A DNA stretch of 37,315 bases from the NCBI GenBank assembly GCA_007132315.1, contig SLOW01000286.1, forward strand, positions 1 to 37,315. The letters run 5' to 3'. Source of the DNA: Opitutales bacterium (GTDB taxonomy: Bacteria > Verrucomicrobiota > Verrucomicrobiia > Opitutales > T3Sed10-336). Made by a program: the position numbers and the translations under genes. The notes beneath the pieces were generated by a model. It saw only the letters and a list, made by a program, of their open reading frames with translations. It was not told the origin of the DNA and searched no databases. Below are positions 4,745 to 37,315 of this stretch, piece by piece (position 1 is the first letter of the stretch; each line of letters opens with the position of its first letter).

Positions 4745-4844
4745 ATTGGAACCACGGCGATGAGAGATGACTTGAAAGGGAAGCGGGGGTACCCGGTCCG
4801 CCCGCTCCGGAGTCCGGAAATCAACCTCAAAAACGAATCACAAG

Positions 4845-6485: not shown

Positions 6486-6636
6486 GGGAAAACCTGCTTG
6501 CCCTGTTTTCCGAGTAGGGAAAAACCTGAAAATTCCAACCCGTAAAGATTGATTTTGACCCGGAAAGTATTTCTGGGTAACAAGAGACTACTCTCGGTTC
6601 GTTTCCTCTTTGTATTACACAAATACCGTCCCCTTT

Positions 6637-7686: not shown

Positions 7687-7830
7687 TCGGCTTACGCCGG
7701 TTCGGCCGGCACGGCCGACGTGCCATCGCGTTGGGTTTCGGACGTTGTGGGCGATCCCGGAGCTCCGCTGTCGATTGGAACCCCGGGGTTTTTCAGTAAC
7801 CGCAACCACGACTCCCATTTGAGCGACGAC

Positions 7831-10800
7831 ATGAACGGATCTCCTGAAAGTGGCGACGAAGACGAACTGGAGGTGGGGGAGCTTCTTGGGAATTACCGGA
7901 TCGAGCGCCAGCTCGGTCACGGCGGCATGGGGGCGGTGTATCTCGCGCGGCATGACCGGCTCGGGAGAGAGGCGGCCTTGAAGGTTGTCGCTCGCAGTTT
8001 GACCGTCTCGGGAGAGGAGACGTTTCAAAGGAAGTTTCATGAGGAGGGCGGGCTGATGGCCTCGCTCGAACACGAGCATATCGTTCGTGTGTTCGATGCG
8101 GGAGAGTCTCATGGACGTTACTATTTGGCCATGGAGTACCTGGCCGGCGGGGATTTGGAGGAACGAAAGCGCACTTGCGGGGGCAGACTTCCGCCCGCCG
8201 AAGTCGCGGGTTACCTCGAGCAGCTCCTGGACGCCCTGATTTACGCTCACGGCAAGGATATTGTTCACCGCGACCTCAAGCCGGCGAACTTGCTTCTGAG
8301 TGAGAAGGGCACCATCAAGGTGTGCGACTTCGGCCTCGCGCGGGTTGTGGGGGACACGTTTGAACAGTCGGTCATCGAGCGCAGTCATCTCGCTTCCAGG
8401 GTCGGAGACGCCCGGACCCGGTTGGGGTCGGTGGGCACCGGAGACCGCTCGGGAACCCTTTACTACATGGCTCCCGAGGTATTGAAAGGCAATCCCGCCG
8501 ACGCGCGCAGCGACTTGTACGCGGTCGGGGTGATCGCCTATTACCTCCTGACCGGCGACAAGCCGATCGGCGCTTACAAACCGGCGAGTGCGATCGTCAA
8601 GGGTCTGGACCGGGGCTGGGACAAGTGGTTGAACAAAGTGCTGCAATCCGAACCCGACGACCGAACTCCCAGCGCGCGGGATGCCCTGCACGGGTTGTCG
8701 CGGCTTCGCCGCACACTGAGAGGCGTCAAGGCTCCCGCATCCCCCGCGTCGAATGCGTCGAAAGTCGCGGGTTGGTCGGCGGCGGCGGTCGCGACCATGG
8801 TGCTCACATACTTCGTTCTTCCGGAAGAAACCGGTGTGTTTCACGCCGAAATTGAGAATCCCGGATTACAGGACGACGAACGCTTGGAGATTGTGGTGGA
8901 CCGGCGCGAGGGCAGATCCACACCGCGGGTTTTGGGGAACTTGATATCTTTCGGGCCGGGCGAGAAATTGCGGAATCGCTTGAGAAGACCCTTCCCCGAA
9001 CGCGCGGTGTCATCCGCGGATGGCGGGTTGCGGAAGGAGGTACCCGCGGGGACGCGACGGGTGCTGTTGCGGCACCCGTATCATGTGCCTTTGTCCATCG
9101 ACTTGGAGGTGGATTCGCGCGGATTCGTCAGTGAGACTGTTGAACTGGTGCGGGGGACCGGACGCTTGGAGATGCGATTCGCAATGGCCGAATCCGATCT
9201 TGATCTGTTCAAGACGGAGGGCGGCCCGGTCATTCGCGTCAACGGACAGCCCATGGACGGCTGGTGGCGGGAGGAGTCTTTGTTCGTTGATTCCTTTCCG
9301 GCGGGCCGCGGTGAAGTCGAACTCGATCATCCGTTCTTCGAAGTGAAGAGCTTTACGTATGATATCGAAACCTATGAGGTCCAGGTCGCGGATGTGGAAC
9401 CCGCCCGCAGTACCGGATCCGTGAGTCTCGATCTCGACCCGTCCGACACCGGCTGGCGTGTCGAAGATGATCAGGAGGTTGTCGAAGAGGGAACCGGTCC
9501 CGGCCGGATCGACCTTCCGGCCGGTTCTTTTGTTTTTGTTGCAAGCCGCCGGGGCTTTGAGACGCCGCCGCGATCATTCGTTCTGGAGCGCGGGGACGAA
9601 TTGGCGTTTGAAGAGTCACTGTTTGGCGATATCGCCCTGGAATTCGTCAACGAACGCCTTTTGGGGGACGAAAATCTGAATGTCGCGCTCGAAGGATCGT
9701 CGATTGACTATGTTTGGGACGGTCCCACGGTGCGCCTTTCCGAGATACCTGCCGGAGAATGTGAACTGGTCTTGACGCATCCCAACTATGAGACGCGATC
9801 GCTCACCCTGAACGTGTCGGCCGACAGAGAAACGGATTATGCGTTGGAGTTATCCCGGGGCGAAGGGCGCGTCGAAGTGATCACCGTTCCCGAATCGTTG
9901 GAATGGGTTCTGGAGCATGCCGAGGGTGAAGCCGACCGAGTTGTGGGCGCCGGCGACTGGACGGGGAGCCTCCCCACCGGGGAATACGTTCTCGGCGGGG
10001 AACTCGACGGGTACGAGCCTGTGGAGAAAGAGTTAACGGTCAATTTGAACGAAGACCATCCGATCGCCCTGGAAACGGTCCGAAGCAAAGGCGCGATCGA
10101 CATCGCGATAACCAATCTCGAGGCCGGTCACGATGTTCAACAGGTTGATCTTCGCGTCGGTGGACGAGAGCGGGAATGGACTCGCCGGGATGGGTTGTTT
10201 CGAGTGAACGGAGTTGCCGCCGGTGAACACGAAATTTCGGCGGCTCACCCCAGGGTGGGGCAATCCACGGCGATGACCACGGTGGAGCACAACGAAACGG
10301 CATCGGTGGAACTGACCTTGGGTCAGGTAGACCCCGTGATTTTAGAAATGCCTTCATTCTCACTGGAACACGGAGCCTCTGTAGTTGCCGTGGCCTGGGC
10401 TCCGAACGGTGTCCGTTTGGCAACTTGCGGCGCGGATGGGGTGGTTCGCCTTTGGAATGTTGTGAATCGCGAGGAGATTACGCGGATTGACGGACATGTC
10501 GGAAGGGTCACGTCCGCGGCGTTTTCGCCCGATGGAGACAGATTGCTCACCGGGGGCGAAGATGGAACCGTTCGTGTGTGGGATGCCGCATCCGGAGAAT
10601 CGGTCCGCGATCTCGAATGGACCGGCGGCGGAGTGACCTCGGTGGCGTTTTCGCCCGGCACCGAAAACCTCGCGCTGGCGGGTGGCGAACGCGGGATTCT
10701 ACGCCTTTGGCGCGTAGCCGAAGGCGAGGTTCTGCTGGACCTGGAGGGACACGAGGGAGGGATCAACTCGATCGCGTTTTCTCCATGCGGCGAAAAGGCG

Positions 10801-11238
10801 CTCAGTGGCGCTCATGACAGGACGGCCCGGTTGTGGAGGCTGGCCACGGGAGAGGAATCGACTCCCACTTTTGAGCACCGGCGCCTTGGTGTCAACGCGG
10901 TGGCTTTCTCCGCTGATGGAGAGCGAATCCTGACCGGAGTGAATGACAACACCGCCCGGCTTTGGAGGGCGGAGACGCGCGAGGAATTGCGCGTATTTCT
11001 CGGGCACGAGCACAGCGTGCAGTCCGTGGATTTTTCGTCCGAGGGACAGCGGATACTCACAACCGGCGGTTGGGACGGAACCACACGGGTATGGAACGCT
11101 AATATGGGCTGGGAGTTGTATCGTATCAAAACAAACGGACGTTTTTTGTGCGCCGCCTTTTCGCCTGACAGACGGAGTATGGTCGTGACGGGCAACGCCG
11201 ACGGGGAGGCGGCGATTTGGCTCTTGGATGAGCGATGA
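7831..11238 (+). CDS. Hanks-type Ser/Thr protein kinase with TM helix, ~6 PEGA-like repeats and 7 WD40 repeats
   Basis: Kinase motifs are LGHGGMGAVY, AALKV, HRDLKPANLL, DFGLAR and YYMAPE. The TM helix is VAGWSAAAVATMVLTYFVLP (about nt 8764-8823). PEGA-like units repeat, for example GECELVLTHPNYETRSLTLNV and GEYVLGGELDGYEPVEKELTV. Seven WD40 units (..FSPDG..LLTGGEDGTVRVWD..) span about nt 10363-11235. The start is taken at ATG 7831; the ORF track opens at GTG 7720. Confidence 0.85.
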   Translation: MNGSPESGDEDELEVGELLGNYRIERQLGHGGMGAVYLARHDRLGREAALKVVARSLTVSGEETFQRKFHEEGGLMASLEHEHIVRVFDAGESHGRYYLAMEYLAGGDLEERKRTCGGRLPPAEVAGYLEQLLDALIYAHGKDIVHRDLKPANLLLSEKGTIKVCDFGLARVVGDTFEQSVIERSHLASRVGDARTRLGSVGTGDRSGTLYYMAPEVLKGNPADARSDLYAVGVIAYYLLTGDKPIGAYKPASAIVKGLDRGWDKWLNKVLQSEPDDRTPSARDALHGLSRLRRTLRGVKAPASPASNASKVAGWSAAAVATMVLTYFVLPEETGVFHAEIENPGLQDDERLEIVVDRREGRSTPRVLGNLISFGPGEKLRNRLRRPFPERAVSSADGGLRKEVPAGTRRVLLRHPYHVPLSIDLEVDSRGFVSETVELVRGTGRLEMRFAMAESDLDLFKTEGGPVIRVNGQPMDGWWREESLFVDSFPAGRGEVELDHPFFEVKSFTYDIETYEVQVADVEPARSTGSVSLDLDPSDTGWRVEDDQEVVEEGTGPGRIDLPAGSFVFVASRRGFETPPRSFVLERGDELAFEESLFGDIALEFVNERLLGDENLNVALEGSSIDYVWDGPTVRLSEIPAGECELVLTHPNYETRSLTLNVSADRETDYALELSRGEGRVEVITVPESLEWVLEHAEGEADRVVGAGDWTGSLPTGEYVLGGELDGYEPVEKELTVNLNEDHPIALETVRSKGAIDIAITNLEAGHDVQQVDLRVGGREREWTRRDGLFRVNGVAAGEHEISAAHPRVGQSTAMTTVEHNETASVELTLGQVDPVILEMPSFSLEHGASVVAVAWAPNGVRLATCGADGVVRLWNVVNREEITRIDGHVGRVTSAAFSPDGDRLLTGGEDGTVRVWDAASGESVRDLEWTGGGVTSVAFSPGTENLALAGGERGILRLWRVAEGEVLLDLEGHEGGINSIAFSPCGEKALSGAHDRTARLWRLATGEESTPTFEHRRLGVNAVAFSADGERILTGVNDNTARLWRAETREELRVFLGHEHSVQSVDFSSEGQRILTTGGWDGTTRVWNANMGWELYRIKTNGRFLCAAFSPDRRSMVVTGNADGEAAIWLLDER

Positions 11239-23881: not shown

Positions 23882-25762
23882 ATGTCCTCCTTGCTTGAGC
23901 GAATCGCAATCTGTAGCTGGTCGCTGCAACCTGACAATGCCGAGGCCCTTTTCAACCAGGTAAGGTCAGCCGAAATTCCTCGGGTTCAGCTGGCTCTTGA
24001 CCCATTGCGACTGAATCCGCGCGGTTGGGATCGTTTCCTCGAACGCTGCAGGGACAACGAAATTGAGATCGTCTCGGGCATGTTCGTCACGGAGGGTGAG
24101 GATTATTCTTCCCTGGAGTCGATCCGTCGCACCGGGGGCATTGCTCCTCATGCCACCTGGGAGACGAACCTGAAGAACATTCGGGCGAACGCCGAAATCG
24201 CCGCCGCGCTGGGCTTGAAATTGGTGACCTTTCATGCGGGTTTCATGCCTCACGATCCGAGCGATCCTGATTTTGAAATTCTGATTGGACGAGTTCGGGA
24301 GGTGGCCGATGTTTTTGCTGCCAACGGAATTGAGATCGCCCTCGAAACAGGACAGGAGGAGGCCGAAACCCTCCGTCACTTTTTAAAGGAACTGGGCCGC
24401 GCCGCTGTTGGGGTCAATTTTGATCCGGCCAACATGCTGCTCTATGACAAGGGGGATCCGATCGCCGCGCTGCGCGTGCTGAGCCCGTGGTTGAAACAAT
24501 GCCACATCAAAGACGCGAAAAAAACCCGTCAGCCCGGCACCTGGGGCGAGGAGGTTCCGGTGGGCACCGGAGAGGTCGACTGGCCATCCTTTTTCGACAC
24601 GCTCAGCGAAGTCGGGTTTACCGGCTATTGCGCCATTGAGCGGGAGGCGGGGGAGGAGCGACCGAAGGATATTCGGACCGCGTGGGAATTCGTGGCTCCC
24701 CTGGTTGGCGGTGGGGGTGCGGTTATCCGCTCCACGTCACCTGTTCGGGTCGGGATTGTCGGTACCGGTTTCGTGGCGGCGACGCATATCAAAGCTTATC
24801 AAAGGCTGGAGGGCGCGAAAATCGTGGGGCTTTGCAACCCTAGCGGCCGTAACCTCGACGGAGATTTTTCAAACGTCACCGGAAACATCGGCTCATCGGA
24901 TCCGGTGCGTCTGGATATGGCGGGTGTTGAGGCCTATCGTGATTTTGAACGGATGCTGGCCAATCCTTCCATCGACCTTGTTGATGTTTGTTCGCCCACC
25001 AGTTCCCACGTCGCACAAACGATCGCTGCCCTTCAGGCGGGCAAGCATGTGCTTTGCGAAAAACCGATCGCCAGGAGCGCCGAGCAGGCCCGGACGATGG
25101 TTAAAGCCGCGAGCGAATCGGCCTCGTTCTTCATGCCCGGAATGTGCCTTCGTTTTTGGCCGGAATGGGCGTGGCTGAAGCGGACGGTCGCGGAGAATCG
25201 TTATGGAAAAGTATTGGCTGCCCGCTTCCGGCGCGTCGCCGAACCGCCGTGGTGGGGGCAAGCCAACTACCTTTACGGGAAACACTCTGGTGGGGCCTTG
25301 TTCGATCTGCACATCCATGATACCGACTTCGTCCAATACTGTTTTGGCAAACCGCTTTCCGTCTTTTCCAGCGGTTACTCTAAATTCAGTGGCGCGATCG
25401 ATCACCTCGTCACGCAATATACCATTCCCGGCGGCGGCTTGATTCATGCCGAGGGAGGGTGGGCCATGACCCCAGGCTTCGGCTTCAGCATGGCTTACAC
25501 GGTCAATTTCGAACGTGCTACTGCCGATTATGACATCACCCGAACGGAGGCTCCGCTTCGGCTTTTCGAAGAAGGTCAAGCGCCGCGTGATGTTCGATGT
25601 GGAAGCGACGACGCTTTTTTTCTGGAGCTTAAATCGTTCTTGGATTCGATCCGCTGCGGAAAAGCTTCCTCGACGGTCACTCCGGAGGACGGGGTTGTGA
25701 CCCTGGAGATTTGTGAAGCCGAAGAAGAATCGGTGCAATCCGGCCGGCCGGTGTCTCTTTAA
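23882..25762 (+). CDS. fusion protein: xylose-isomerase-like TIM barrel (N) plus Gfo/Idh/MocA oxidoreductase (C)
   Basis: 626 aa. The N-half carries TIM-barrel blocks (LVTFHAGF, IALETGQE, NFDPANM, CHIKD). The linker is LVGGGGAVIRSTSP. The C-half carries VRVGIVGTGFVAATH and AGKHVLCEKPIA. Confidence 0.8.
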   Translation: MSSLLERIAICSWSLQPDNAEALFNQVRSAEIPRVQLALDPLRLNPRGWDRFLERCRDNEIEIVSGMFVTEGEDYSSLESIRRTGGIAPHATWETNLKNIRANAEIAAALGLKLVTFHAGFMPHDPSDPDFEILIGRVREVADVFAANGIEIALETGQEEAETLRHFLKELGRAAVGVNFDPANMLLYDKGDPIAALRVLSPWLKQCHIKDAKKTRQPGTWGEEVPVGTGEVDWPSFFDTLSEVGFTGYCAIEREAGEERPKDIRTAWEFVAPLVGGGGAVIRSTSPVRVGIVGTGFVAATHIKAYQRLEGAKIVGLCNPSGRNLDGDFSNVTGNIGSSDPVRLDMAGVEAYRDFERMLANPSIDLVDVCSPTSSHVAQTIAALQAGKHVLCEKPIARSAEQARTMVKAASESASFFMPGMCLRFWPEWAWLKRTVAENRYGKVLAARFRRVAEPPWWGQANYLYGKHSGGALFDLHIHDTDFVQYCFGKPLSVFSSGYSKFSGAIDHLVTQYTIPGGGLIHAEGGWAMTPGFGFSMAYTVNFERATADYDITRTEAPLRLFEEGQAPRDVRCGSDDAFFLELKSFLDSIRCGKASSTVTPEDGVVTLEICEAEEESVQSGRPVSL

Positions 25763-27108: not shown

Positions 27109-27897
27109 ATGAAAAAGCGACACGGCTTCTTTTTTACACGGTGTGTTCCGCGGATTAACTCCCTTGTCTTGGCGATTTCGGCCACCTCCGCGGCGGTGGC
27201 CGCCTTCGGTGATGATACGCCGGAGCGGGACGGCTGGATCACATTGTTCAATGGCGAAAACCTCGACGGATGGCGCGTTTCCGAGGCCGCCGCGCAGTCG
27301 TGGAGTGTGGTCGATGGCGTCATCGATTGTGACCCCAGGAGCACCGTTTCGGGCGAGCGGGATATTTGGAGCAAGGACGCTTTTGGCGATTTTATCCTCT
27401 ACGTCGAGTGGCGTCTCACCGATACCCCGACCGTCGAGACTCGGCCGTTGATAGCGCCTGATGGCGGGCATGTGAAGGATGAAGCTGGTAACGTGGTCAC
27501 GGAGACTTTTCCAAATGCTGATTCCGGGATTTACCTGCGGGGAATGTCGAAGGCGCAGGTTAATATCTGGAACTGGCCGATTGGGTCGGGGGAAGTCTGG
27601 GGGTACCGTACGGACGACAATATGCCTGCCGAAGTCCGCGCCGACGTAACACCACGTATCCGGGCCGACAAAGAGCCTGGCGAGTGGAATACTTTTGTAA
27701 TCACGATGGTTGGTGATCGCCTTTCGGTCTTGTTGAATGGCCAGATGGTGATCAATTATGCACAATTACCGGGTGTCGCAAAAGAAGGACCCATCGGCCT
27801 CCAGTACCACGGCGGATTTAATCACGAGACGGATGAATACGCCCCTGCTTCCAGCCTGGTGCAGTTTCGCAATCTATTCCTGAAAGCGTTGGATTGA
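27109..27897 (+). CDS. secreted DUF1080 (3-keto-disaccharide hydrolase family) protein
   Basis: A signal peptide is followed by GWITLFNGENLDGWRV, W.V.DGVI, FGDFILYVEWR, NSGIYLRG, GPIGLQYHG and VQFRNLFLK. These are typical DUF1080 landmarks. Confidence 0.75.
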   Translation: MKKRHGFFFTRCVPRINSLVLAISATSAAVAAFGDDTPERDGWITLFNGENLDGWRVSEAAAQSWSVVDGVIDCDPRSTVSGERDIWSKDAFGDFILYVEWRLTDTPTVETRPLIAPDGGHVKDEAGNVVTETFPNADSGIYLRGMSKAQVNIWNWPIGSGEVWGYRTDDNMPAEVRADVTPRIRADKEPGEWNTFVITMVGDRLSVLLNGQMVINYAQLPGVAKEGPIGLQYHGGFNHETDEYAPASSLVQFRNLFLKALD

Positions 27898-29449: not shown

Positions 29450-30424
29450 TCATTGGCCTAAATAGGCGCTGTGCTCCTGGTCCGCTTGACGGCGGATTGC
29501 CGCCTTGTCGTCGGCCTTCTCTTCCATCCTTTCGATCAAGAAACGGCCGGTCATTGTCCTGACCTCACCCTCGCTGAGTTCATCCGTGAAGAAAAAGCCA
29601 AACCGGCCGTAATCGCGCCAGGATAATTCTGTCGACCGGTTCTCCGGCCGGTTCAGCTGGGTTACTGAGTACCAGTTTCCGTGTAAAGGATACCGGAAGT
29701 TGACCCAATTGAGTTCGTCCGAAACGATCCGGCCACCTCCCGGCGAGAGGTGAGCGGGTGACCATAGGTACTTGGTATCTCCCCGAACTTCATCGACTTC
29801 CGCATCGGCTCGAAAATGTAAACCGGCGTGCTGCAAGTCTCCATGCAGTTTCAAATCCCGTTTCGCTGTCATTTCGGATCGATGATCCACAACCGTTCTC
29901 CCTCTCATCCGGGTCACTTCAATAGTACGCCGTTCGGCGACCAGCAAACCGTTACTTTCGTCGTCACGGTCGGATGAGAGCCAGTGAATAAGCAGATCGA
30001 GTCGTGCTCCGTCGGAGGTCGCCTCCTTCCGCTCAATGGAAATAAGTTCCATGCGTTCATCGCCTCGGAGGTGCCAGAGATCGTCGGAACCCAGATCGCT
30101 CTGAACCTGATTCCAACCGATGAAAATCCCGCGGTGGTGCGGAAAGCGTCCGCGTGTTTCGCCGTCCGAATCGATGCCGGGATTTGTTAGCCGGTGCCCT
30201 TCTTCGTCGTACACGCTCAAGTAGGGTTTTATCTGCCCTTCTTCTTGCGGGCCGTACACAAAGCCCGCCACCCTCGTCCCATCGTGATCAATCTCTATGA
30301 TCCGTCCCGGTAGTGCATCATTTTCCCGGTCAACAACGGTCCACTCGCTCCATGCAGACGTGTTTAGCGTAAAAATTGCCGTTGCCAGTATCAAGGTTAG
30401 CAATGCTTGGTGTTGATTCTTCAT
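29450..30424 (-). CDS. secreted PmoA-family/DUF6807-like protein
   Basis: Signal peptide MKNQHQALLTLILATAIFTLNTSA. The block RFPHHRGIFIGWNQV..DLWH matches my recollection of the family's HHRG(I/L)(F/W) motif. Confidence 0.5.
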   Translation of the reverse strand: MKNQHQALLTLILATAIFTLNTSAWSEWTVVDRENDALPGRIIEIDHDGTRVAGFVYGPQEEGQIKPYLSVYDEEGHRLTNPGIDSDGETRGRFPHHRGIFIGWNQVQSDLGSDDLWHLRGDERMELISIERKEATSDGARLDLLIHWLSSDRDDESNGLLVAERRTIEVTRMRGRTVVDHRSEMTAKRDLKLHGDLQHAGLHFRADAEVDEVRGDTKYLWSPAHLSPGGGRIVSDELNWVNFRYPLHGNWYSVTQLNRPENRSTELSWRDYGRFGFFFTDELSEGEVRTMTGRFLIERMEEKADDKAAIRRQADQEHSAYLGQ

Positions 30425-30539
30425 AATTAATCAATTCTAGTTTTACAATCAGGTGCACCTGTGAAACTGATGCCGTCCCCGCGGCCTATTAACTTTGCCG
30501 GATGTCGAGGCTGTCAATCCTTAACCGCTCATAATCAGG

Positions 30540-30985
30540 AGGGGGTCGGACGAAGTGTCGCAGACAAAGGATAACCACAACATGTTATCCTCGATTGATT
30601 TTATGTCCAGTATTGCTAAGCTGACTGGAGCGGAATTATCCGATTATGAAATCGACGGGGAAAAATCCGGGGTCTCATTCTTGGTTCTGATGGAGCGGTA
30701 AATCCTCATGACTGCTATTCAATCACCAGGATAGATCAATTCCAGGGGTTGATCAGTGGAGATGGAAAATGGAAATTGATGCTGCCGCACGAGTATCTCA
30801 GTGTGGTTTGGGGTGGCAGGGACGGAGAGCCCGGTACAAACCGTTAGGTTATGATCGACACAGCGCCATTCGATATGGTGCATGACCCCTATGAAAAAAT
30901 AAATGTCATCGATGAGTATCCGGATATCGCTGAACAAATGCTGCGGTATGCAGAAGAACATAGGTCGATCTTTTTCGATGAATAA
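30540..30985 (+). pseudogene. sulfatase C-terminal remnant (frameshift plus in-frame stops)
   Basis: One frame reads SSIDFMSSIAKLTGAELSDYEIDGEKSGVSFLVLMER*. After a frameshift it reads GDGKWKLMLPHEYLSVVWGGRDGEPGTNR*VMIDTAPFDMVHDPYEKINVIDEYPDIAEQMLRYAEEHRSIFFDE*. These match the typical sulfatase C-terminal blocks D..PT...L.G...P....DG.S and L(Y/F)D...DP.E..N. Confidence 0.6.
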
Positions 30986-31278
30986 TACATTGCGTCCCCA
31001 CGAGTTCAAGTCGACTGTTTTAGAAATGAATGCGACAATGGTGCAATCCGACCCACAAAGAGGTTCGTTGGTGCCGAACGCACGTGTCGTGACCTGCCCT
31101 TGAGGCCGCCCTATGTCACAATATGGGGGACCTTCCCGAACCGGGAACTACCCACGAATTTTTCTGAGGAGGCAAAATTTTTAAGGATAAGGACTAACCC
31201 GACGGATTGGGTCGTTATCATTCATAGCGGGGGAACGAGATTGGGTTGGGTTCGCATAGAGTGAACTCGTGAAGGAGT

Positions 31279-31893
31279 TTACATCTTCGGCATGATCCGG
31301 GCCATGTCGTCGTGAGGGCGGGCGATAACGTGGGCGGCGATCAGTTTGCCGAGTGTGCTGACCGCCTGCGCGCCGGCGTCGATCGCGGCTTTGACCGCCG
31401 CCACGTCTCCCTCGATGATGATGGTGACGTAGGCCGCCCCGATCTTTTCTTTGCCGATGAGGCGGACATCGGCGGTTTTGAGCATGGTGTCGGTGGCTTC
31501 GAGGATGGCGGCGAGGCCCTGGGTTTCAAGGATGCCGATTGCTTTGTTGTTTGTTTTCATAGGTGAAGGATCGGGGCGAATTTCGTCGCGTCCCCCGTAA
31601 AGAGCGTTGATGGTCACTGGGCCTGAGTTTAATTGATCGATCCCGGGGGCGAGAGAGGGGAGGAGCGTCGCGACGGGTTCGACCCCCATCCGTTGAGCCT
31701 CGCTGACGCCGACCGCAATGGCTGAATTCAGATCGGCCGGTCCGCTTCCTTGTAATCGGATGAGCACACGTTCGTCCCCGATCGGCTCGAGGCCGAGCAA
31801 GGTGACGTCCGCGGCTTTAAGCATCAACTCGGTCACCATCATAGTGATGGAGAAGAATGGCACTTCGACGAGCGCTATGCTGGCTGTTTTCAC
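31279..31893 (-). CDS. tandem BMC-domain shell protein (BMC-T-like; divergent domain 1, canonical domain 2)
   Basis: Domain 2 (nt 31294-31545) reads AIGILETQGLAAILEATDTMLKTADVRLIGKEKIGAAYVTIIIEGDVAAVKAAIDAGAQAVSTLGKLIAAHVIARPHDD, a close match to the PduA/EutM/CcmK pattern. Domain 1 (nt 31630-31884) reads SIALVEVPFFSITMMVTELMLKAADVTLLGLEPIGDERVLIRLQG. The GTG start overlaps the aldolase stop (TAGTG). The protein has no Cys. Confidence 0.85.
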   Translation of the reverse strand: MKTASIALVEVPFFSITMMVTELMLKAADVTLLGLEPIGDERVLIRLQGSGPADLNSAIAVGVSEAQRMGVEPVATLLPSLAPGIDQLNSGPVTINALYGGRDEIRPDPSPMKTNNKAIGILETQGLAAILEATDTMLKTADVRLIGKEKIGAAYVTIIIEGDVAAVKAAIDAGAQAVSTLGKLIAAHVIARPHDDMARIMPKM

Positions 31894-32915
31894 TACTTGG
31901 GAAGGCGGCTATGGACAACATCGCGAACGATTGATTCGACACGGGCGCGCCATGCGTCAGAAAATTTCGGGTCTCCTTCAGCGGAGTGGACGGTGCAATG
32001 TTTCGCGGCTTCGGGAAATCCGCATTCTGTTAAGACGCAGGCGATGCGGGAGCGAACAACGTCCATCAATTCCAATTCCGCCGGGGCGAGCGGGAACCGG
32101 GCTCGCCCGGTGTCGAACCCCCTGAGCTGATATCCGGCCCGAAAACCTTCGGGGAAATTCGGGGCGTTGACCATCAAGGAAAAGAGATCGAGCAGTTTAA
32201 ACTGCACGTGCCTGGCTGAGTCCCAGTTTCCGCCGACGGTTTCGTGATAAATTTTCATGATGACCTCCGGGACGATTCCCGCGCTGGAGAGCGTGCCGCC
32301 GTCGCCGCCCATGAAGAGGGAGGCGCAGAGGAGTTCCTCCCACCCGATGAGCACTGAAAAATCGGGACGTTGCGGTTTGATCTCATGCAGGACTTGTTGA
32401 AAGCGAGGCATGTCCCGCGAGGTGTCCTTCGTACCGATGATTCGCGGGCAATCGAGCGCCAGGCGTTTGAGGACGGGAACGCTGATCTCGTTGGCGAAGG
32501 CAGGAATATTGTAGATGACAATATCAATCGGAGATTTCGCGGCCAGTTCTCGGAAATAGGTTTCGATGCTCTCCTGGGTCAGTTTGTAGTAATAAGGACC
32601 GGTGATGGATACCGCTCGACATCCGAGGCCGGCGCAGTAGCGGCACATTTCTAGAACGAGGTCGACGTTTGGTTCCGCCGCCCCTGCAAGGATCGGCCGG
32701 CCTCCCGCTTCTTCGGTGACGATTTTGAGGACCCGCTTGCGTTCCTCGTAAGACAGGCGAATGAACTCGCCCATGCTGCCGTTCGGATAGAATCCGGTAA
32801 CCCCTTTGTCGCCAAGCCAACGGATGATGCGGCGAAGTTCCTCTTCGTTGATCCGTCCCTGGTCATCGTAGGGGACGATGTTCGGTACAAAGATTCCTTG
32901 TAATTGACCGGGCAT
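31893..32915 (-). CDS. DHDPS/N-acetylneuraminate-lyase-family class I aldolase with C-terminal extension
   Basis: Family blocks are GFYPNGSMGEF (variant of GTTGE), IVIYNIP and IIGTKDTS (Schiff-base Lys). At 340 aa it runs ~40 aa beyond the usual family length. Confidence 0.8.
   Translation of the reverse strand: MPGQLQGIFVPNIVPYDDQGRINEEELRRIIRWLGDKGVTGFYPNGSMGEFIRLSYEERKRVLKIVTEEAGGRPILAGAAEPNVDLVLEMCRYCAGLGCRAVSITGPYYYKLTQESIETYFRELAAKSPIDIVIYNIPAFANEISVPVLKRLALDCPRIIGTKDTSRDMPRFQQVLHEIKPQRPDFSVLIGWEELLCASLFMGGDGGTLSSAGIVPEVIMKIYHETVGGNWDSARHVQFKLLDLFSLMVNAPNFPEGFRAGYQLRGFDTGRARFPLAPAELELMDVVRSRIACVLTECGFPEAAKHCTVHSAEGDPKFSDAWRARVESIVRDVVHSRLPK
31896..31955 (-). other. putative BMC encapsulation peptide (C-terminal amphipathic helix of the aldolase)
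   Basis: AWRARVESIVRDVVHSRLPK has hydrophobic residues at i, i+4, i+7, i+8, i+11, i+12 and i+16. It is preceded by a linker, ECGFPEAAKHCTVHSAEGDPKFSD. The pattern resembles known encapsulation peptides such as the PduD/PduP N-termini. Confidence 0.5.
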
Positions 32916-32947: not shown

Positions 32948-33790
32948 TCAGGATGTTGGGTCCAAAGAGTAAATACGCCGGGCGTTCCGAGCATAGATTT
33001 TATCCCGGTTCTCCGCGCTCTCCTCCGCGAATATTTCATGAGTGACCTTGACCCATTGGTTCAGTGAGGCGGTCAAATTGCAAACAGGCCAGTCGCCTCC
33101 CCAGACGAGGCGGTCCCAGCCAAAACAATCCACCGCATGTTCGACCCACGGGCGGATCGTTTCGGTTGTAACCGCATCCGGAGGAGAATATGCAGGCAGC
33201 CCCGAGACTTTACAGATAACATTGGGACGGCTCGAGATATCCCGAAGCGAATCGTGCCATGGATCGCGTGCTTCCCCTGCGATGTCGGGCACGCCGCAAT
33301 GGTCGAGAATGAACGAAACATTCGGGCAGGAATCGACCAATTCCGCGGCGATTGTAAGCTGTGCGGGAAGCACGCAAAGGTCGAAGGTTAGGCCGCGCGC
33401 GGCGAGCCGGGCGATGTTTTGCCGGAAACTCGGTAAACGGGAAAGCTCATCCGGCTGGGTGTGGAGAACCCGTCGGATTCCTTTCACCGCAGGGTGATGG
33501 ATTGTATCCAGGTGCGTTTCGAAATCGTCATTTTCCGGACGGGCGGAGGCGATCACCCCGAGTAGCTTGTTGGCCGGATTCTCGGCCATTCGAGAAAAGA
33601 ACCGGGCCTCATCAATCGACTGGGCCCGGTCGACGTCGACCTCCATAAATAAGGTTCCCTCGATATCGAGGCCGGCGGAGGCGTTGCGGTATTCGTCCAG
33701 ACGGAAATTACCTTGCAGAGGAGACAGATTTTCCGTCCAAGGATACTGGAAACGACCCGGGTAGAGGAGATGTTGGTGAGTATCGATCAT
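32948..33790 (-). CDS. amidohydrolase-2 (COG3618-type) sugar lactonase-like protein
   Basis: MIDTHQHLL carries the HxH metal motif at the N-terminus. Other blocks are ILDHCG and VWGGDWP. This matches the pattern of the family that includes L-fucono-1,5-lactonase. Confidence 0.7.
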   Translation of the reverse strand: MIDTHQHLLYPGRFQYPWTENLSPLQGNFRLDEYRNASAGLDIEGTLFMEVDVDRAQSIDEARFFSRMAENPANKLLGVIASARPENDDFETHLDTIHHPAVKGIRRVLHTQPDELSRLPSFRQNIARLAARGLTFDLCVLPAQLTIAAELVDSCPNVSFILDHCGVPDIAGEARDPWHDSLRDISSRPNVICKVSGLPAYSPPDAVTTETIRPWVEHAVDCFGWDRLVWGGDWPVCNLTASLNQWVKVTHEIFAEESAENRDKIYARNARRIYSLDPTS

Positions 33791-33792
33791 AG

Positions 33793-34131
33793 TCAGTCAG
33801 AGTGAAAAACTTCTTCCATTTCCGCCCACCATTCGCCAGGTAAGCGATCGGGGAGGGGGGTCTGGCATGGCTTGCATACTTCCCACCATTCCAGGGTTTT
33901 GGGATCGGCCGCCATCTTGGCCGCGTCTGCCTCGAAGTCGTTCCCAGTGTATTCAAAATAACTAAACAGGTAGTAATTTCCGTCGGGAAGTTTTCGCAAA
34001 TAGATCGAGTAGTTGCGGATGTTGCACTTGTCGATCATCTGCAGGACCTCCGGCCAGACCGCGGCGTGGAGACGTTTGTATTCTTCGATTTTTTCCGGTT
34101 TAAGACCGATTACACTTCCGTAACGCTTCAT
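33793..34131 (-). CDS. rhaM: L-rhamnose mutarotase family protein
   Basis: 112 aa. MKRYGSVIGLKPEKIEEYKRLHAAVWPEVL..IRNYSIYL..LFSYFEY..WW..C is co-linear with the YiiL/RhaM pattern. Confidence 0.8.
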   Translation of the reverse strand: MKRYGSVIGLKPEKIEEYKRLHAAVWPEVLQMIDKCNIRNYSIYLRKLPDGNYYLFSYFEYTGNDFEADAAKMAADPKTLEWWEVCKPCQTPLPDRLPGEWWAEMEEVFHSD

Positions 34132-34146
34132 CGTAATATCCAGGGT

Positions 34147-34674
34147 TCAGGTTTCTTTGTCAGGTACTTCAGCTTCAAAGGCCGCCGGGTTGCGATACTT
34201 GACGGTCTGAAGGTGTTCACAATATAGGGCCAGATCGCCTTCATTCTTAAAGATCTCGTAGCTGGCGCGATAGAGTCCCATTTCCTTATATTTGGGAGAT
34301 TTCTCCAAGTCGGTTTTGATGGTGTAGACCGTGTCGCCGATGAAGACAGGTTTGATAAATCGAAGCTTGTCGTAGCCATAACTGAAGGCGTTCACGCAAT
34401 TGGTGGCGACCAGGCCGAGCCCGACACTGAACACCATCGCTCCGGCGATCAGTCGCCTGCCGAAGAGGCCATCTTCGCGGGCGAAGATTTCGTCGGCCAC
34501 ATACGGATGCATATCGAGGACCAAGGCGTTGAATTGCATCGATTCCCCCTCACCCAGCGTGCGGCGTATTGAACGAATCCTTCGGCCAATCTGGATATCC
34601 TCGTAATACCAGTCTTCGGCGTTCCAAACAGGAATCTCCTTATGTTTGACTGGATCCGGATTGGGATTCTTCAC
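34147..34674 (-). CDS. MaoC-like hot-dog protein lacking the catalytic His (probable non-catalytic partner)
   Basis: The hydratase-2 motif position reads LDMHPYV, so Asp is kept and His is replaced by Val. It shares the block [20 protein letters not shown] with the second MaoC. The GTG start overlaps the CoA-transferase stop (GTGA). Confidence 0.7.
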
Positions 34675-35837
34675 AAGTGAAACTCTTTCTCTACGGATTG
34701 GTTGTGTTGTCCGATGGAGGGTGCGCCTCGGGTGGATTTATAAATGTTGCCGTCGATCCGAATGGGACAGCGAAGCGTTTTCAACGGCGTTCCACCAGAA
34801 CACAAGATTTCCTGTTCCATGTCAAGCGCGCGATAACCCTCGGTTGCCCGCAATACTTTCCAATTCATGACCTCCGCGCACCAAATGTCGGCCGGTTCGA
34901 GGACCGCCAGCCATTCGGTAGTTGTTTTGCTCTTTAGATGATTGCGCAGGATCCCCTTGATCTCATCACGGCGGGTGAACCAACTCTTGGGTTCGGTAAA
35001 CGATTCCAGCGGGGGGCAATCGAGCAGTTTCCCCAAATGAGTCACTGCGCCCATGGCCAAGGCGAGATGCCCGTCGGCGGTGGCGTAGATGCCATAAGGC
35101 GCTCCGAGATAGGCGTGGCCGTTATTCACCGCGCTCCGGCGGGCGGGTTGTTCCCCATCGTTCAAATGGGTGGTGATGACTTCGAACTGCAGGTCGAGGA
35201 TCGACTCCAGCAGGCTCACCTCCACGCGTGCTCCTCTTCCGGATATGCCGCGTCGAACCAGACAGGCGAGGATTCCCTCGACCAGGTGTGCGCTGGCGGC
35301 AAGGTCGGCGACGGCGAGACCCACCGGGACGGGCGGATCGTCCATGTTGCCTGAAAGCCAGCAAAGTCCCGATATCGACTGGGCGAGGAGATCCTGGCCG
35401 GGTTTGGCCGCCCAGGGGCCGTCCGGTCCATAACCGGTCACGGTGCCGAAGATCAGGCGCGGATTGATGCGCGCCACGGTATCGTAATCAAGGCCGAGCT
35501 TTCGCATGACTCCAGGGCGAAAGTTTTCGATCAGGACATCGGCACTTTCAATCAATTTCCGCACTTTCGCCAAATCATCGGCGTCTTTGAGGTCGGCTGC
35601 GAAACCTTCTTTATTGCGATTGATGGAATGAAATAGGGTGCTATCTCCTTCGACCCCCAGATTCGAGATATAGAGCTGGCGGCAGATGTCCCCGCCTCGG
35701 GGCCGCTCGATTTTAATCACCCGCGCACCTAGGTCGGCCAGTCGCATCGCGGCGGCGGGCCCGGCCAGAAATTGGGAAAAATCGAGAACGAGCAGGCCGT
35801 GCAGCGGTTTGTCGGAGGAGTCTGAAGCATTTACCAT
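34671..35837 (-). CDS. family III (CaiB/BaiF) CoA-transferase
   Basis: Blocks: [78 protein letters not shown]. Confidence 0.85.
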
Positions 35838-35866
35838 AACGAGGGAGCGAGTGAGATTGTGTCGGT

Positions 35867-36334
35867 TCAGGTTTGAAGTTCGGGGCTGGACTCCGGTTCG
35901 CGCCGGTTGACCAGCAGGAGGTGTTCACAGGCGAGGACGATTTCATCTCTCTGATTGAAGACCTCGACCAGTTCGCTGACCACTCCTTGCGCGGGTCGCT
36001 TATGCGGACGCTTCTCCTTGACCGCCACCCGGACTCGGATGGTATCACCAATAAAGACCGGCTTGATAAAGCGAAGGCGATCGTAACCGTAGGAAAAGGC
36101 TTCGGCGTTGATCGCACCGGCTGTCATTCCGATGGCGACGCTGAATATCAGTGTGCCGTGGGCGATTCTCTGGTGGAACTCCTGGGTCTTGCACCATTCC
36201 GCATCCATGTGATGCGGATAAAAGTCACCGGTCTGTCCGGCGTGCATGACGATGTCGGTTTCGGTAATGGTTCGTCCGCCGGTTTGGCGGACATGTCCGA
36301 TTTCGTACTCTTCAAAATAGATATTTGTGAACAT
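35867..36334 (-). CDS. MaoC-like (R)-specific enoyl-CoA hydratase/dehydratase (catalytic Asp/His present)
   Basis: The hydratase-2 motif reads [12 protein letters not shown]. It shares the block [20 protein letters not shown] with the first MaoC. Confidence 0.75.
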
Positions 36335-36344
36335 GAGTGGGAAG

Positions 36345-37315
36345 TCAGGTATTGCCCGTCAGGCATTTTTGAAACAAACGATTCAATTCGCGCGCGGTGT
36401 CGGACGGTCTCGTGTGTCCGGCTACGCATGCGTGCGCGATCTGAGTCCCGGCGTCCTGAAAGGCCATGTATCCCGGAAACTGCGGACGCAAGAGAGCGAC
36501 ATCAAGAGTCGGGAGGGTTTCCCGGAAGAAGTTCATGCTGGCCGTATTCACCAATGAATCCGTCCAGGCGCTACGGTGACCCGGCTGGCCGCCCGCTTCA
36601 AAATAGATTCCTTTTTGGATTTCCGGACTTGCGGAGAAGGCGGCATAATCCATCGCGGTCCGTGGGTGCTTCGTCATCGCGGATACGGCAAGTCCGGCTC
36701 CACCCAAGGTGGAGCGAAGGGGGGAGTTCCCATAGGTAATCAATCCCCCCGCCTGCAACGGATGCTTGGTGTAACGCGGTCTTGAGTAATTCGAATAGCC
36801 GTAAGCGAACGGACAATAGGCGGCCCGTGGATCGTCGTCGGCAGTCGACATCCATTCGGCGGTGCGGATCGGGTTGCGCTCCAGGCAGGCCGGATCGCAA
36901 TGGGAAACCAATTCCCGCAAAGCCTCGAGAGCCTGAGATAACGCATCCTCCTCGGCCACCTGTTCCCCGTCGAAAACGCGGCCACCCACGGCTTCGCTGA
37001 ACATATAGGCGTGCATCAGGATATCGATCGGAAACGCCGAGACCGTGACAAATCCCCCTTTTGCGAGAGCGAGCAGATCATCCCAATTTTCGGGAAGTTT
37101 CAGAGCGTAACGTTCGATTAAATCGGGCCTCCAGGTCGCGATCGGGGCGGCTGCATCGGTTGCAAGCGTCCATTGCCGGTCCTTGAAACGGTAACTCGGA
37201 TGGGAGCGCCCGACGGAGTTTGCGGCCTGGTCCGCCAGGAATTCGCCTGACACCCAATCCTCGTAGGGAAGGAGAAGCCCTTCGGTCGCGGCCAACGCGG
37301 TATGCGGATGATCCA
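36345..37315 (-). CDS. family-1 extracellular solute-binding-protein-like protein (N-terminus outside the window)
   Basis: The frame stays open to the window edge (..[20 protein letters not shown]..), so the TTG at 37295 in the ORF track is not necessarily the start. Blocks such as [30 protein letters not shown] resemble SBP_bac_1 proteins. Confidence 0.55.

Follow-up and report, generated by a model that had tools for sequence, protein, structure and literature searches.

A tandem BMC-T shell gene paired with a tailed class I aldolase suggests a plug-in module of the Planctomycetes-Verrucomicrobia microcompartment

A BMC-T gene overlaps an aldolase gene at the end of an operon

The DNA analysed here (the window) is an entire contig of 37,315 bp. 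On its minus strand, positions 31279-31893 encode a BMC-T(s) shell protein of 204 aa that starts at a GTG codon, contains two non-permuted BMC domains and lacks cysteine. The adjoining upstream gene (31893-32915, minus strand) encodes a 340-aa class I aldolase of the DHDPS/NAL family (PF00701, 172.6 bits), and the two reading frames meet in a TAGTG junction (31891-31895, minus strand), where base 31893 is common to the TAG stop of the aldolase and the GTG start of the BMC-T gene (...CCC AAG TAG TG AAA). An initial annotation of the locus had described this overlap, which amounts to one base. An in-frame stop 5 codons 5' of the GTG leaves no earlier start possible; moreover, alignments with BMC-T homologues of 202-211 aa begin at residue 1-5 of the 204-aa product.

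The pair is preceded on the minus strand by a gene for an Amidohydro_2 lactonase resembling L-fucono-1,5-lactonase (32948-33790; PF04909, 160 bits), which remained under threshold against NCBIfam FuconLaconase (123 bits, cut-off 400), and by a gene for a RhaM-family deoxyhexose mutarotase (33793-34131; PF05336, 114 bits). The mutarotase recurs in related loci, and in many of them the Amidohydro_2 lactonase lies directly 5' of the aldolase. Pfam searches further assigned a co-operonic trio on the same strand, comprising a MaoC-like gene (34147-34674), a family III CoA-transferase gene (34671-35837) and a second MaoC-like gene (35867-36334); a weakly solute-binding-protein-like ORF (36345-37295, minus strand; PF13416, 28 bits) lies at the contig edge, and the operon probably extends past the contig end at 37315. 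Neither a sugar dehydrogenase nor a dehydratase gene was present in the 37-kb window. At the opposite end, the next minus-strand gene encodes a DUF6807 protein (29450-30424) and lies 855 bp downstream of the BMC-T gene, in agreement with the earlier placement of the latter as the terminal gene of the operon. The 855-bp stretch 3' of the BMC-T gene contained no Rfam match and no convincing minus-strand terminator.

To survey the window for other microcompartment genes, we used as tblastn queries the proteins of a Planctomycetes-Verrucomicrobia (PVM) microcompartment locus, namely PTAC, three BMC-H, three BMC-P, AldDH and the class II aldolase, all from the verrucomicrobial locus L086, and the BMC-T gene was the sole match. 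Pfam scans and recorded gene calls for the other large ORFs of the window were likewise devoid of shell or core genes, and BMC-P queries with EutN, PduN and CcmL, which were perhaps too distant, had the same negative outcome. The absence of further shell and metabolosome core genes, as asserted in the initial annotation, was thus upheld for the contig, to which it applies rather than to the rest of the genome. A satellite BMC locus is defined as one or more shell genes, with or without enzymes, that lack the combination of BMC-H and BMC-P (Sutter et al. 2021, PMC8217296). That combination was missing from the 37-kb contig by tblastn, which agrees with the proposed satellite shell locus; its context is of the PVC type (Verrucomicrobiota). 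A tblastn search of the PLSDB plasmids returned 0 matches.

The shell protein is a tandem BMC-T without cysteine

The product of 31279-31893 matched PF00936 (BMC) over two stretches (121.9 bits against a cut-off of 24.5; E = 1e-35), as expected from the two BMC domains that the initial annotation had read in this single ORF. In the AlphaFold2 model (pLDDT 88.1), DSSP assigned the succession beta-alpha-beta-beta-alpha-beta twice, at residues 5-78 and 118-190, and thereby predicted a non-permuted element order for both domains. The top Foldseek match to the whole chain was a synthetic tandem BMC-H fusion (6NER; TMq 0.75), and domain 2 superposed on PduA and EutM with a TMt of ~0.9.

Domain 2 (31312-31545, minus strand; residues 117-194) is PduA-like (E = 5e-26 and ~54% identity to PduA, PDB 3ngk), with the pore loop G-K-E-K-I-G-A-A-Y-V, nearly invariant across the family, and the edge motif A-A-H-V-I-A-R-P-H. 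Domain 1 (31660-31881, minus strand; residues 5-78) carries P-I-G-D-E-R at the pore-loop position, and its family-invariant residues are K26, E36, G39, E41 and R46. Across the family, pairwise identity averages 0.84 for domain 2 and 0.52 for domain 1, which agrees with the earlier description of the former as near-canonical and the latter as divergent. Between them lies a linker (31546-31659, minus strand; residues 79-116) with the conserved motif L-N-x-x-P-x-T-I-N-x-L-Y-G-G-R-(D/E)-E, in which L88, N96, Y99, G100 and R102 are invariant; it was modelled at a pLDDT of 60-80, below the rest of the protein. Two edge lysines, K26 and K139, are invariant in the family, as is the R-P-H motif of domain 2. 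This conservation of edge motifs points indirectly to a putative pseudohexameric BMC-T trimer that would tile shell facets. The pore of such a trimer would be formed by three Ala of domain 2 together with, from domain 1, three copies of a variable residue and the invariant E41.

We compared the protein with two known tandem shell proteins. CcmO of the beta-carboxysome is similar in having two non-permuted BMC domains, ~205 aa and no Fe-S cysteine, and of the NCBIfam families it aligned best over the full length (residues 3-203); an identity with CcmO was rejected, as the score of 115.5 bits fell under the NF053792 cut-off of 270 and no carboxysome genes occur in the window. PduT is also a tandem BMC-T(s), but it has a 4Fe-4S pore cysteine and a short linker, whereas the window protein has 0 Cys and a conserved linker of 38 residues. 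An identity with PduT was discarded on the same absence of cysteine from which the initial annotation had argued, together with a TIGR02526 score of 47.6 (cut-off 250.3) and a poor whole-chain superposition (TMq 0.41).

The shell-protein class itself has already been catalogued. In the accessible part of the Sutter catalog, the 'T_pvm' / Ts_mud clade consists of tandem BMC proteins of 202-233 aa from Planctomycetes, mostly labelled 'PVM (sat)'; within that part of the tree, no Verrucomicrobia were found in the clade and searches by genus name came back empty, and PduT-type PVM satellites from Opitutus are included. The catalog text makes no mention of an aldolase neighbour or of a function for the 'T_pvm' clade (PMC8217296), and no account of the aldolase module came to light in our searches.

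The aldolase carries a conserved C-terminal tail

The closest solved structure to the aldolase was the Picrophilus KD(P)G aldolase (4uxd; E = 2e-35). Y135 (YNIP) and K163 (GTKDTS) are invariant across 27 aldolase homologues, and from our knowledge of the DHDPS/NAL family we take K163 to be the Schiff-base lysine and Y135 the catalytic tyrosine. The fold and these presumed catalytic motifs are common to the window enzyme and to the KD(P)G / 2-keto-3-deoxy-sugar-acid aldolases of the DHDPS/NAL family, such as 4uxd. The enzyme scored under the NCBIfam equivalog cut-offs. From the neighbouring genes in related loci, we infer that it is a putative 2-keto-3-deoxy-L-fuconate aldolase, which would release pyruvate and L-lactaldehyde.

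The enzyme extends by a tail of ~50 aa (residues 291-340) past the end of the matched region of its best solved homologues (289-306 aa), whose matched regions stop near query residue 290 and which have no counterpart of the three tail segments. Directly after the aldolase fold lies the cysteine motif C-x-L-x-x-C-G-F-x-E-A-A-x-x-C (31995-32039, minus strand; residues 293-307), found in nearly all BMC-T-linked aldolases and with C293, C298 and C307 invariant in the homologue alignment. It is followed by a poorly conserved linker (31959-31994, minus strand; approximately residues 308-319), modelled as disordered with a pLDDT <50 at residues 310-315; across the family, 16-56 aa with no conservation of sequence separate the cysteine motif from the helix core. 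Finally, a putative encapsulation peptide, DAWRARVESIVRDVVHSR (31905-31958, minus strand), was predicted by AlphaFold2 as an 18-residue helix (residues 320-337) ending three residues before the C-terminus. The initial annotation overlooked this tail, the most informative feature.

The terminal helix has the conserved pattern V-E-x-I-V-R-x-V-L-x-x-L. Of the 72 aldolases adjacent to a BMC-T, 69 have the motif V-[DE]-x-I-V-[RQ]-x-V-[LMV] at a distance of 3-12 aa from the C-terminus, and a stricter form of the tail motif occurred 40 times among the 1071 ORF products of all loci, every time <=15 aa from the C-terminus. Furthermore, the extension is missing in the second DHDPS paralogues of the loci L086 and L088. 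Encapsulation peptides are described as short (15-20 aa), terminal, alpha-helical and amphipathic segments on BMC-associated homologues of enzymes (Kinney 2012 / Aussignargues 2015; PMC4594438). With its terminal helix and variable linker on BMC-associated aldolases, the tail looks like a segment of the kind covered by this written definition (PMC4594438).

Within the helix, positions 0, 3, 4, 7, 8 and 11 are conserved hydrophobics on one helical face. The Eisenberg moment of the window helix (0.27) was not above that of shuffled sequences (0.30 +/- 0.15), the tails of the family had a median of 0.49 with p<0.05 in 20 of 68 members, and the validated PduP tag ranked no higher on this measure than the window helix. 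Because the hydrophobic moment did not discriminate, we relied on the conserved hydrophobic spacing as evidence for the tail. By this spacing, the validated PduP tag LETLIRTILSEQL (PMC5405515) and the window tail VESIVRDVVHSRL match nearly position by position, and the pattern Phi-x-x-Phi-Phi-x-x-Phi-Phi-x-x-(x)-Phi is common to the Salmonella PduP and PduD peptides and the window tail; the Pdu peptides are N-terminal, whereas the putative peptide of the window is C-terminal and belongs to a different enzyme family. In the PVM locus of L086, the N-terminus of AldDH (ETLVRDIVSEVLGRL) and the termini of PTAC and the class II aldolase are likewise similar to the tail. Covariation of the tail with BMC-T columns, measured as mutual information, was no higher than in the phylogenetic control, the aldolase core (99th percentile 0.57 vs 0.56), and thus provides no specific support for direct binding between tail and tile, nor any evidence against it.

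The gene pair is conserved and adjoins complete PVM loci

The BMC-T is encoded in at least 483 GTDB species genomes, the best 80 being nearly all from Verrucomicrobiota. We examined 82 related loci, at least 77 of which contain a tailed aldolase near the BMC-T gene. The DHDPS aldolase gene lies immediately upstream on the same strand in 73 loci, immediately downstream in 2 and ~6 kb off in another 2, with the same tail throughout, and 4 of the 82 loci have a BMC-T gene without a nearby aldolase. Tight coupling to the aldolase, which the initial annotation had read from a single junction, proved to be a trait of the family: 64 of 71 junctions overlap or leave gaps of <=25 nt (20 overlapping, 44 with gaps of 0-25 nt; median 6). 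An apparent fusion of the two genes in one ORF (L012) was rejected, as a TAA stop separates them. The arrangement extends to planctomycete loci (L088, L170), where the same tailed aldolase is followed by a BMC-T with the domain 2 motif GKEKIGAAYV.

Common neighbours in the related loci are GH29/GH95 fucosidases, a mutarotase, a fuconolactonase-like amidohydrolase, and SDR and MR_MLE (fuconate-dehydratase-like) enzymes, which probably indicate a non-phosphorylative L-fucose route ending in lactaldehyde. The suggestion that the operon serves a different deoxy-sugar from that of the PVM organelle was probably mistaken, because genes for GH29/GH95 enzymes, mutarotase, fuconolactonase-like and fuconate-dehydratase-like proteins in these loci speak for the same sugar, L-fucose. 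The MaoC/CoA-transferase/MaoC trio of the window also stands beside the pair in five other loci (L023, L031, L032, L051 and L060), in one of which (L031) dehydrogenase and dehydratase genes are located upstream of it; in L082 the CoA-transferase is accompanied by a single MaoC gene, and in L063 by none. The CoA-transferase and MaoC genes of the window do not fit a simple fucose pathway.

The PVM bacterial microcompartment has reportedly been the subject of a study by Erbilgin et al. in 2014. It is found in Verrucomicrobiota and Planctomycetota, and its main shell has been described as comprising two BMC-H and three BMC-P proteins and no BMC-T (PMC8217296). Genome and homologue searches revealed no other shell gene within 10 kb in 81 of the 82 loci. 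On three independent contigs (L086, L090 and L095), the aldolase-BMC-T module is fused to a complete PVM locus, lying directly upstream of it in the gene order DHDPS (with tail), BMC-T, PTAC, three BMC-H, BMC-P, AldDH, two BMC-P and class II aldolase. Compared with the window, the BMC-T proteins of these contigs are 50-51% identical over their full length and the aldolases 59-61%; in such PVM-integrated copies, the linker motif of the BMC-T reads NPLYGGRDQ. These contigs support a genetic link of the BMC-T family to PVM core genes, and the connection to the PVM organelle drawn in the initial annotation is thereby substantiated at the level of the family, as distinct from this genome.

Discussion

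Our preferred interpretation, which we hold to be probable though well short of assured, is that the window pair constitutes a satellite module of the PVM organelle, made up of an encapsulated 2-keto-3-deoxy-L-fuconate aldolase and a dedicated shell tile. In this scheme, the non-phosphorylative L-fucose route would end with 2-keto-3-deoxy-L-fuconate, which the class I aldolase would split into pyruvate and L-lactaldehyde. The C-terminal peptide of the enzyme would package it in the shell, such that the toxic aldehyde is released in the lumen and consumed by the PVM aldehyde dehydrogenase, phosphotransacylase and partner enzymes. The trimeric, pseudohexameric BMC-T tile would be inserted into the shell facets, where it would most likely serve as a route for the acid sugar in and pyruvate out, as an anchor for the aldolase tail, or as both. 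The canonical class II fuculose-1-phosphate aldolase would thereby be joined by another signature enzyme, and the organelle would have a second route of entry.

The described PVM microcompartment (PMC8217296) and the window module share taxa, sugar (L-fucose/L-rhamnose) and toxic intermediate (lactaldehyde). Both also have an aldolase as signature enzyme with a C-terminal targeting peptide, putative in the window; that of the PVM class II aldolase has been described on an encapsulated enzyme (PMC4594438). They differ in that the canonical enzyme is of class II (PF00596) and acts on a phosphorylated ketose, whereas the window enzyme is of class I (PF00701) and would belong to a non-phosphorylative route. 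A similar logic, a distal enzyme with its own trimeric shell protein, is seen in the 'EUT modules' (EutABC with an EutL-type BMC-T) on HO/SPU microcompartments, for which it has been proposed that such satellites of signature enzyme and BMC-T widen the substrate range of the main BMC (PMC8217296). Like the window family, these modules are now and then integrated in the main locus; they differ in their enzyme (ethanolamine ammonia-lyase rather than an aldolase), in their permuted BMC-T(sp) as opposed to the BMC-T(s) of the window, and in the type of host BMC.

Given the tail, the aldolase is more likely packaged in the shell than only docked on it or feeding it from outside. An aldolase that stays in the cytosol, with its tail on the outer BMC-T face and lactaldehyde handed through the pore into the PVM shell, would follow the docking tile of the initial annotation. 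This version could claim the same evidence of pairing and coupling, and may draw some support from the shell structures from Haliangium, in which BMC-H-type domains have their termini on the concave, outward-pointing face. We nevertheless regard external docking as unlikely, since the tail is akin to the termini found on presumed luminal enzymes of the L086 PVM locus (AldDH, PTAC and the class II aldolase), the encapsulated PVM class II aldolase itself bears a C-terminal peptide (PMC4594438), and free toxic aldehyde outside the shell would run contrary to the purpose of the organelle. Alternatively, the BMC-T might be a generic permeability tuner, that is, a fucose-induced alternative PVM tile whose adjacency to the aldolase reflects co-regulation and not partnership. 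The lack of covariation between tail and tile would suit such a role, as would the loci with a BMC-T but no nearby aldolase (4/82) and the second copy in some genomes. It becomes distinctly unlikely in view of the specific adjacency of the aldolase in 73/82 loci, with frames mostly overlapping or nearly touching while the other operon genes vary, and of the retention of the pair both inside the main PVM locus and across two phyla.

We also considered an autonomous two-component assembly, in which BMC-T sheets, tubes or small cages would scaffold the tagged aldolase with no PVM shell involved. The 81 of 82 loci without another shell gene within 10 kb could be read in this manner, and the aldolase and BMC-T are linked more tightly to each other than to other genes; however, the pair belongs to a full PVM locus on three contigs, its taxa (Verrucomicrobiota and Planctomycetota) coincide with the PVM range (PMC8217296), and related planctomycete BMC-T(s) proteins in the accessible part of the catalog are labelled 'PVM (sat)', which denotes genomes with a main locus (PMC8217296). 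Moreover, the benefit of a scaffold without downstream aldehyde-consuming enzymes is not obvious, and we judge this arrangement very improbable. Equally slight, in our estimation, is the chance that in many Verrucomicrobiota the tile forms an open sheet or minimal cage that scaffolds the aldolase, perhaps together with a cytosolic lactaldehyde-consuming enzyme, as a shell-independent, two-gene 'mini-compartment' derived from the organelle.

Returning to the satellite module, the pairing suggests a plug-in that brings a second route of fucose breakdown into a known protein organelle. In current models, entry into the PVM organelle depends on a single enzyme, the class II fuculose/rhamnulose-phosphate aldolase. 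Should the proposal be correct, hundreds of species would possess a second, plug-in entry, in which a class I aldolase of the non-phosphorylative route comes with a targeting peptide and a shell tile of its own, and this would be, as far as we found, the first class I aldolase signature enzyme tied to a microcompartment. The module would also provide a compact natural set of tag, enzyme and tile for engineering and for studies of how cargo is matched to shell permeability. The consumption of fucoidan and other algal polysaccharides rich in fucose and rhamnose by Verrucomicrobiota and Planctomycetota, in which PVM microcompartments are considered to play a central part, is one of the links in marine carbon turnover (PMC8857213, PMC8217296).

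As a separate observation, single-domain 'BMC-H' proteins are a repeated outcome of gene callers shortening this BMC-T family, and such shortened calls may bias censuses of shell proteins. For the gene of the window, a 186-aa database call (P0001, starting at ATG19) would, according to the AlphaFold2 model, cost the BMC-T its strand beta1 and part of helix 1.

An aldolase and a tandem shell protein form a conserved pair

The minus-strand ORF at 31279-31893 opens with GTG and encodes a 204-aa shell protein, termed BMC-T here, in which the PF00936 (BMC) profile matched two stretches (Pfam; 121.9 bits, E = 1e-35), bearing out the initial annotation's proposal of two BMC domains in one ORF. An AlphaFold2 model built from an alignment of 27 homologues (pLDDT 88.1, pTM 0.83) predicts that residues 5-78 and 118-190 each fold as a canonical beta-alpha-beta-beta-alpha-beta unit, with a linker of about 38 residues between them. 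Domain 2 matched PduA, EutM and CsoS1 among PDB sequences (E = 1e-21 to 1e-26) and superposed on their folds with a TMt of about 0.9, while domain 1 is divergent with a still recognisable BMC relationship. Mean pairwise identity in the family is 0.52 in domain 1 and 0.56 in the linker but reaches 0.84 in domain 2, in agreement with the earlier description of a near-canonical second and a divergent first domain. The domain 2 pore loop GKEKIGAAY is nearly invariant, and the residues Glu36, Gly39 and Glu41, which surround the pore position of domain 1, are invariant. The best whole-chain superposition was on 6NER, a synthetic tandem fusion of Haliangium BMC-H (TMq 0.75).

The protein contains zero cysteines, as first noted. 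PduT identity was excluded by this absence and by the TIGR02526 score (47.6 vs 250), and the chain superposes poorly on PduT (TMq 0.41); CcmO identity was likewise excluded (115.5 bits vs 270 needed). The protein is a BMC-T(s). In the available text of the Sutter catalog, a published survey of BMC types, the 'T_pvm' clade is mostly labelled 'PVM (sat)', a label that planctomycete DHDPS plus BMC-T satellites fit.

Directly upstream lies a 340-aa class I aldolase of the DHDPS family (PF00701; 31893-32915, minus strand). The final base of its TAG stop is the first base of the BMC-T GTG, so that the TAGTG overlap claimed initially stands, with one shared base. Because the nearest upstream in-frame stop lies five codons before this GTG and homologues of 202-211 aa share the same alignment start, the 204-aa gene model is, judged from sequence, correct.

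Database searches returned more than 3,000 relatives of BMC-T, the best 120 of which are tandem proteins with 55-62% identity, their few named entries being Verrucomicrobia. A GTDB scan with one genome per species put the number of relatives at 483 or more, and almost all of the best 80 loci come from Verrucomicrobiota (Opitutales, Akkermansiaceae/Verrucomicrobiales, Chthoniobacterales, 'subdivision 3' and Kiritimatiellia). Across 82 surveyed neighbourhoods (L002, L004, L006-L085), a DHDPS aldolase was directly upstream of BMC-T on the same strand in 73, directly downstream in two and about 6 kb away in two; one BMC-T was at a contig edge, and four (L070, L078, L079, L083) had no aldolase nearby and occupied unrelated contexts. 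The 71 measurable junctions comprised 20 overlaps and 44 gaps of 0-25 nt (median 6), and all other neighbours were variable. The aldolase-BMC-T pair is thus a widespread, conserved unit. Some genomes carry two BMC-T copies: L040/L042 (JAPLTF01), L038/L078 (CAYRLT01) and L009/L080 (SKLD01).

The aldolase carries a putative encapsulation peptide

The aldolase is far more conserved than BMC-T (75-84% identity among its top 120 matches), and its YNIP tyrosine and GTKDTS lysine are invariant in 27 homologues. Matches to the best solved structures of DHDPS/NAL/KD(P)G aldolases, which have 289-306 aa, stop near residue 290, leaving 50 extra residues in three parts: a Cys motif, a linker and a terminal helix. 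The conserved Cys motif C-x-L-x-x-C-G-F-x-E-A-A-x-x-C (residues 293-307; window 31995-32039, minus strand) lies between the fold end and the linker, with C293, C298 and C307 invariant; in the alignments inspected, the solved homologues stop short of it, and the triad may bind a metal or engage in a disulfide. The linker has no conservation, with pLDDT <50 at residues 310-315, and the distance from Cys motif to helix core ranges from 16 to 56 aa in the family.

AlphaFold2 predicts an 18-residue terminal helix, DAWRARVESIVRDVVHSR. Of the 72 aldolases adjacent to BMC-T, 69 have its core, V-[DE]-x-I-V-[RQ]-x-V-[LMV]-x-x-[LI], ending 3-12 residues before the C-terminus, and so do all four aldolases near, but not directly upstream of, BMC-T. 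A stricter 9-residue motif occurred 40 times among 1,071 ORF products from all loci, every time within 15 residues of the C-terminus, and second DHDPS paralogues in L086 and L088 have no tail extension. The L029 and L042 aldolases have a shorter variant tail (…AAKPDIAAMLARINRRVP) replacing the V-E-x-I-V-R-x-V-L motif.

BMC encapsulation peptides are defined as short terminal helices, preceded by a poorly conserved linker, in BMC-associated homologues; the class II aldolase of the Planctomycetes-Verrucomicrobia microcompartment (PVM) has such a C-terminal peptide after a 23-81-aa linker (PMC4594438). The tail architecture matches these features, while the signs of amphipathicity are mixed: the conserved hydrophobic positions 0, 3, 4, 7, 8 and 11 fall on one helix face, but for the window's helix the hydrophobic moment (Eisenberg) was not above that of shuffles. 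The core also lines up at nearly every position with the PduP tag, which is validated (LETLIRTILSEQL against VESIVRDVVHSRL; PMC5405515).

Gene context points to L-fucose

Recurrent neighbours of the pair include GH29 and GH95 alpha-L-fucosidases, an SSF transporter, a RhaM-type mutarotase, short-chain dehydrogenases, an Amidohydro_2 lactonase resembling L-fucono-1,5-lactonase and enolase-superfamily (MR_MLE) dehydratases. The oxidative, non-phosphorylative route converts L-fucose through fuconolactone and fuconate to 2-keto-3-deoxy-L-fuconate, and we take the neighbour genes to be its gene set. From this context, the aldolase would cleave 2-keto-3-deoxy-L-fuconate to pyruvate and L-lactaldehyde; aldolase and lactonase scores fall under the NCBIfam equivalog cut-offs.

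The BMC-T family is linked to the PVM organelle

A domain 2-only search retrieved a single-domain-looking relative (database record P0316), whose homologues led to L086, a locus from a Verrucomicrobiota MAG. There, an annotated 91-aa protein is in fact a 204-aa BMC-T family ORF overlapping the end of a tailed DHDPS aldolase, and a full PVM locus starts about 0.55 kb downstream, in the order PTAC (PduL), three BMC-H, BMC-P, aldehyde dehydrogenase, two BMC-P and class II aldolase. A metagenome scan with the L086 PTAC returned 80 PVM loci. The arrangement is identical in the two closest, L090 and L095, of which L095 lies on a 265-kb contig. BMC-T proteins of the three loci are 50-51% identical to that of the window over their full length, with a linker motif common to all, and the aldolases are 59-61% identical. 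Termini of similar flavour to the DHDPS tail occur in L086 at the N-termini of the aldehyde dehydrogenase (ETLVRDIVSEVLGRL) and PTAC (VVEHLVRQAVYQRL) and at the C-terminus of the class II aldolase (AVKAITDQIMAQI). Moreover, planctomycete contigs (Phycisphaerae L088 and L089, Thermoguttaceae L170) carry a tailed DHDPS and then BMC-T as a satellite, a shell locus lacking the BMC-H plus BMC-P combination. The PVM link suggested initially is therefore supported at the family level by physical linkage on three contigs, taxonomic range and peptide similarity.

Some PVM main loci are preceded, at a distance of 2-3 kb and on the opposite strand, by a different tandem BMC protein with about 30% identity (L118 3238-3759, L122 206-727, L140 5792-6313; all minus strand), which may be the PduT-type PVM satellite that the catalog lists.

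The BMC-T gene is systematically truncated by gene callers. The public-database call for the window's protein (P0001) has 186 aa and loses strand beta1, and homologues were called as 91-106-aa 'BMC-H' in L086 (9662-10276), L088 (9617-10291) and L170 (about 980-1613), because the callers overlook domain 1, which is divergent, and starts that overlap or are not ATG. Shell-protein censuses may therefore score such proteins as hexamers. On the planctomycete-like metagenome contig L087 (9696-10300), each domain has its own gene, 101 aa for domain 1 and 99 aa for domain 2, and the two abut after a frameshifted tailed DHDPS, either a genuine two-gene version or an assembly error.

A satellite module may add a second signature enzyme

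The best-supported reading is that the pair is a satellite module through which the PVM microcompartment gains a second signature enzyme. The class I aldolase with its tag would be packaged in the PVM shell and release lactaldehyde in the lumen, and the co-translated BMC-T would be inserted into shell facets. The canonical PVM route takes sugar phosphate in and lets DHAP out; here, the tile could be a pore for the acid-sugar substrate and pyruvate or an anchor for the aldolase tail, non-exclusive roles that we consider about equally likely. Candidate elements for either role are the domain 2 pore loop, Glu36/Gly39/Glu41 and the linker motif, which is conserved, and covariation between tail and tile was not above the phylogenetic control.

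Three rival readings use the same proteins differently. BMC-T and the aldolase might form an autonomous two-gene assembly, to be weighed with the finding that the other 81 loci have no shell gene within 10 kb of BMC-T and with the contiguous PVM genes of the three linked contigs. BMC-T might instead be an external docking tile, or a generic permeability tuner, readings to be set beside the likeness of the aldolase tail to the termini of enzymes taken to be luminal in the L086 PVM locus and beside the conserved pairing of the two genes. We favour the satellite module.

The nearest concept is the satellite 'EUT module' (EutABC with an EutL-type BMC-T), which Sutter et al., in the available text, propose to extend the function of other BMC types (PMC8217296). 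The PVM entry there comprises two BMC-H and three BMC-P, with a diagram 'with satellite loci'; this text gives no PF00701 aldolase for PVM, its sole PF00701 mention being MUF2 (PMC8217296). Full-text literature searches combining microcompartments with fuconate, dihydrodipicolinate, PF00701 or non-phosphorylative returned no description of the module, and literature on verrucomicrobial and planctomycete fucoidan use describes the class II route only. The BMC-T class and the PVM organelle are already known. A class I aldolase partner bearing a tag, and the second entry route that it implies, seem not to have been described before.

Other features of the window

The window is an entire contig of a metagenome-assembled genome, and gene searches covered its 37,315 bp. 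Pfam scans and recorded calls on large ORFs found no further shell or metabolosome core gene, and tblastn with a genuine verrucomicrobial PVM gene set matched the BMC-T gene alone, all in line with the initial annotation. Downstream of BMC-T, an 855-bp stretch (30425-31278) has no credible ORF and no Rfam match; a GC-rich palindrome within it (31197-31212) might be the operon terminator, but fails the minus-strand T-run criterion.

The operon also contains a family III CoA-transferase between two small MaoC-like genes of R-hydratase fold (34147-36334, minus strand). This trio recurs with the pair in five other species (L023, L031, L032, L051, L060), and partially in L082 (CoA-transferase and one MaoC gene) and L063 (CoA-transferase only). 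We know of no step in the known non-phosphorylative fucose routes that requires these enzymes; they might handle lactyl-CoA or serve a CoA-dependent pathway variant.

On the plus strand, a signalling cluster (3137-11238) encodes an FHA-domain protein, a PP2C phosphatase, a PD40 beta-propeller protein and a 1172-aa Ser/Thr kinase with fused WD40 repeats. A 626-aa fusion of a xylose-isomerase-like TIM barrel and a GFO/IDH/MocA oxidoreductase (23882-25762, plus strand) adjoins an MFS transporter and a 3-keto-disaccharide hydrolase-like gene; together with 27109-27897 (plus strand), this region suggests a separate oxidative glycoside-cleavage locus.
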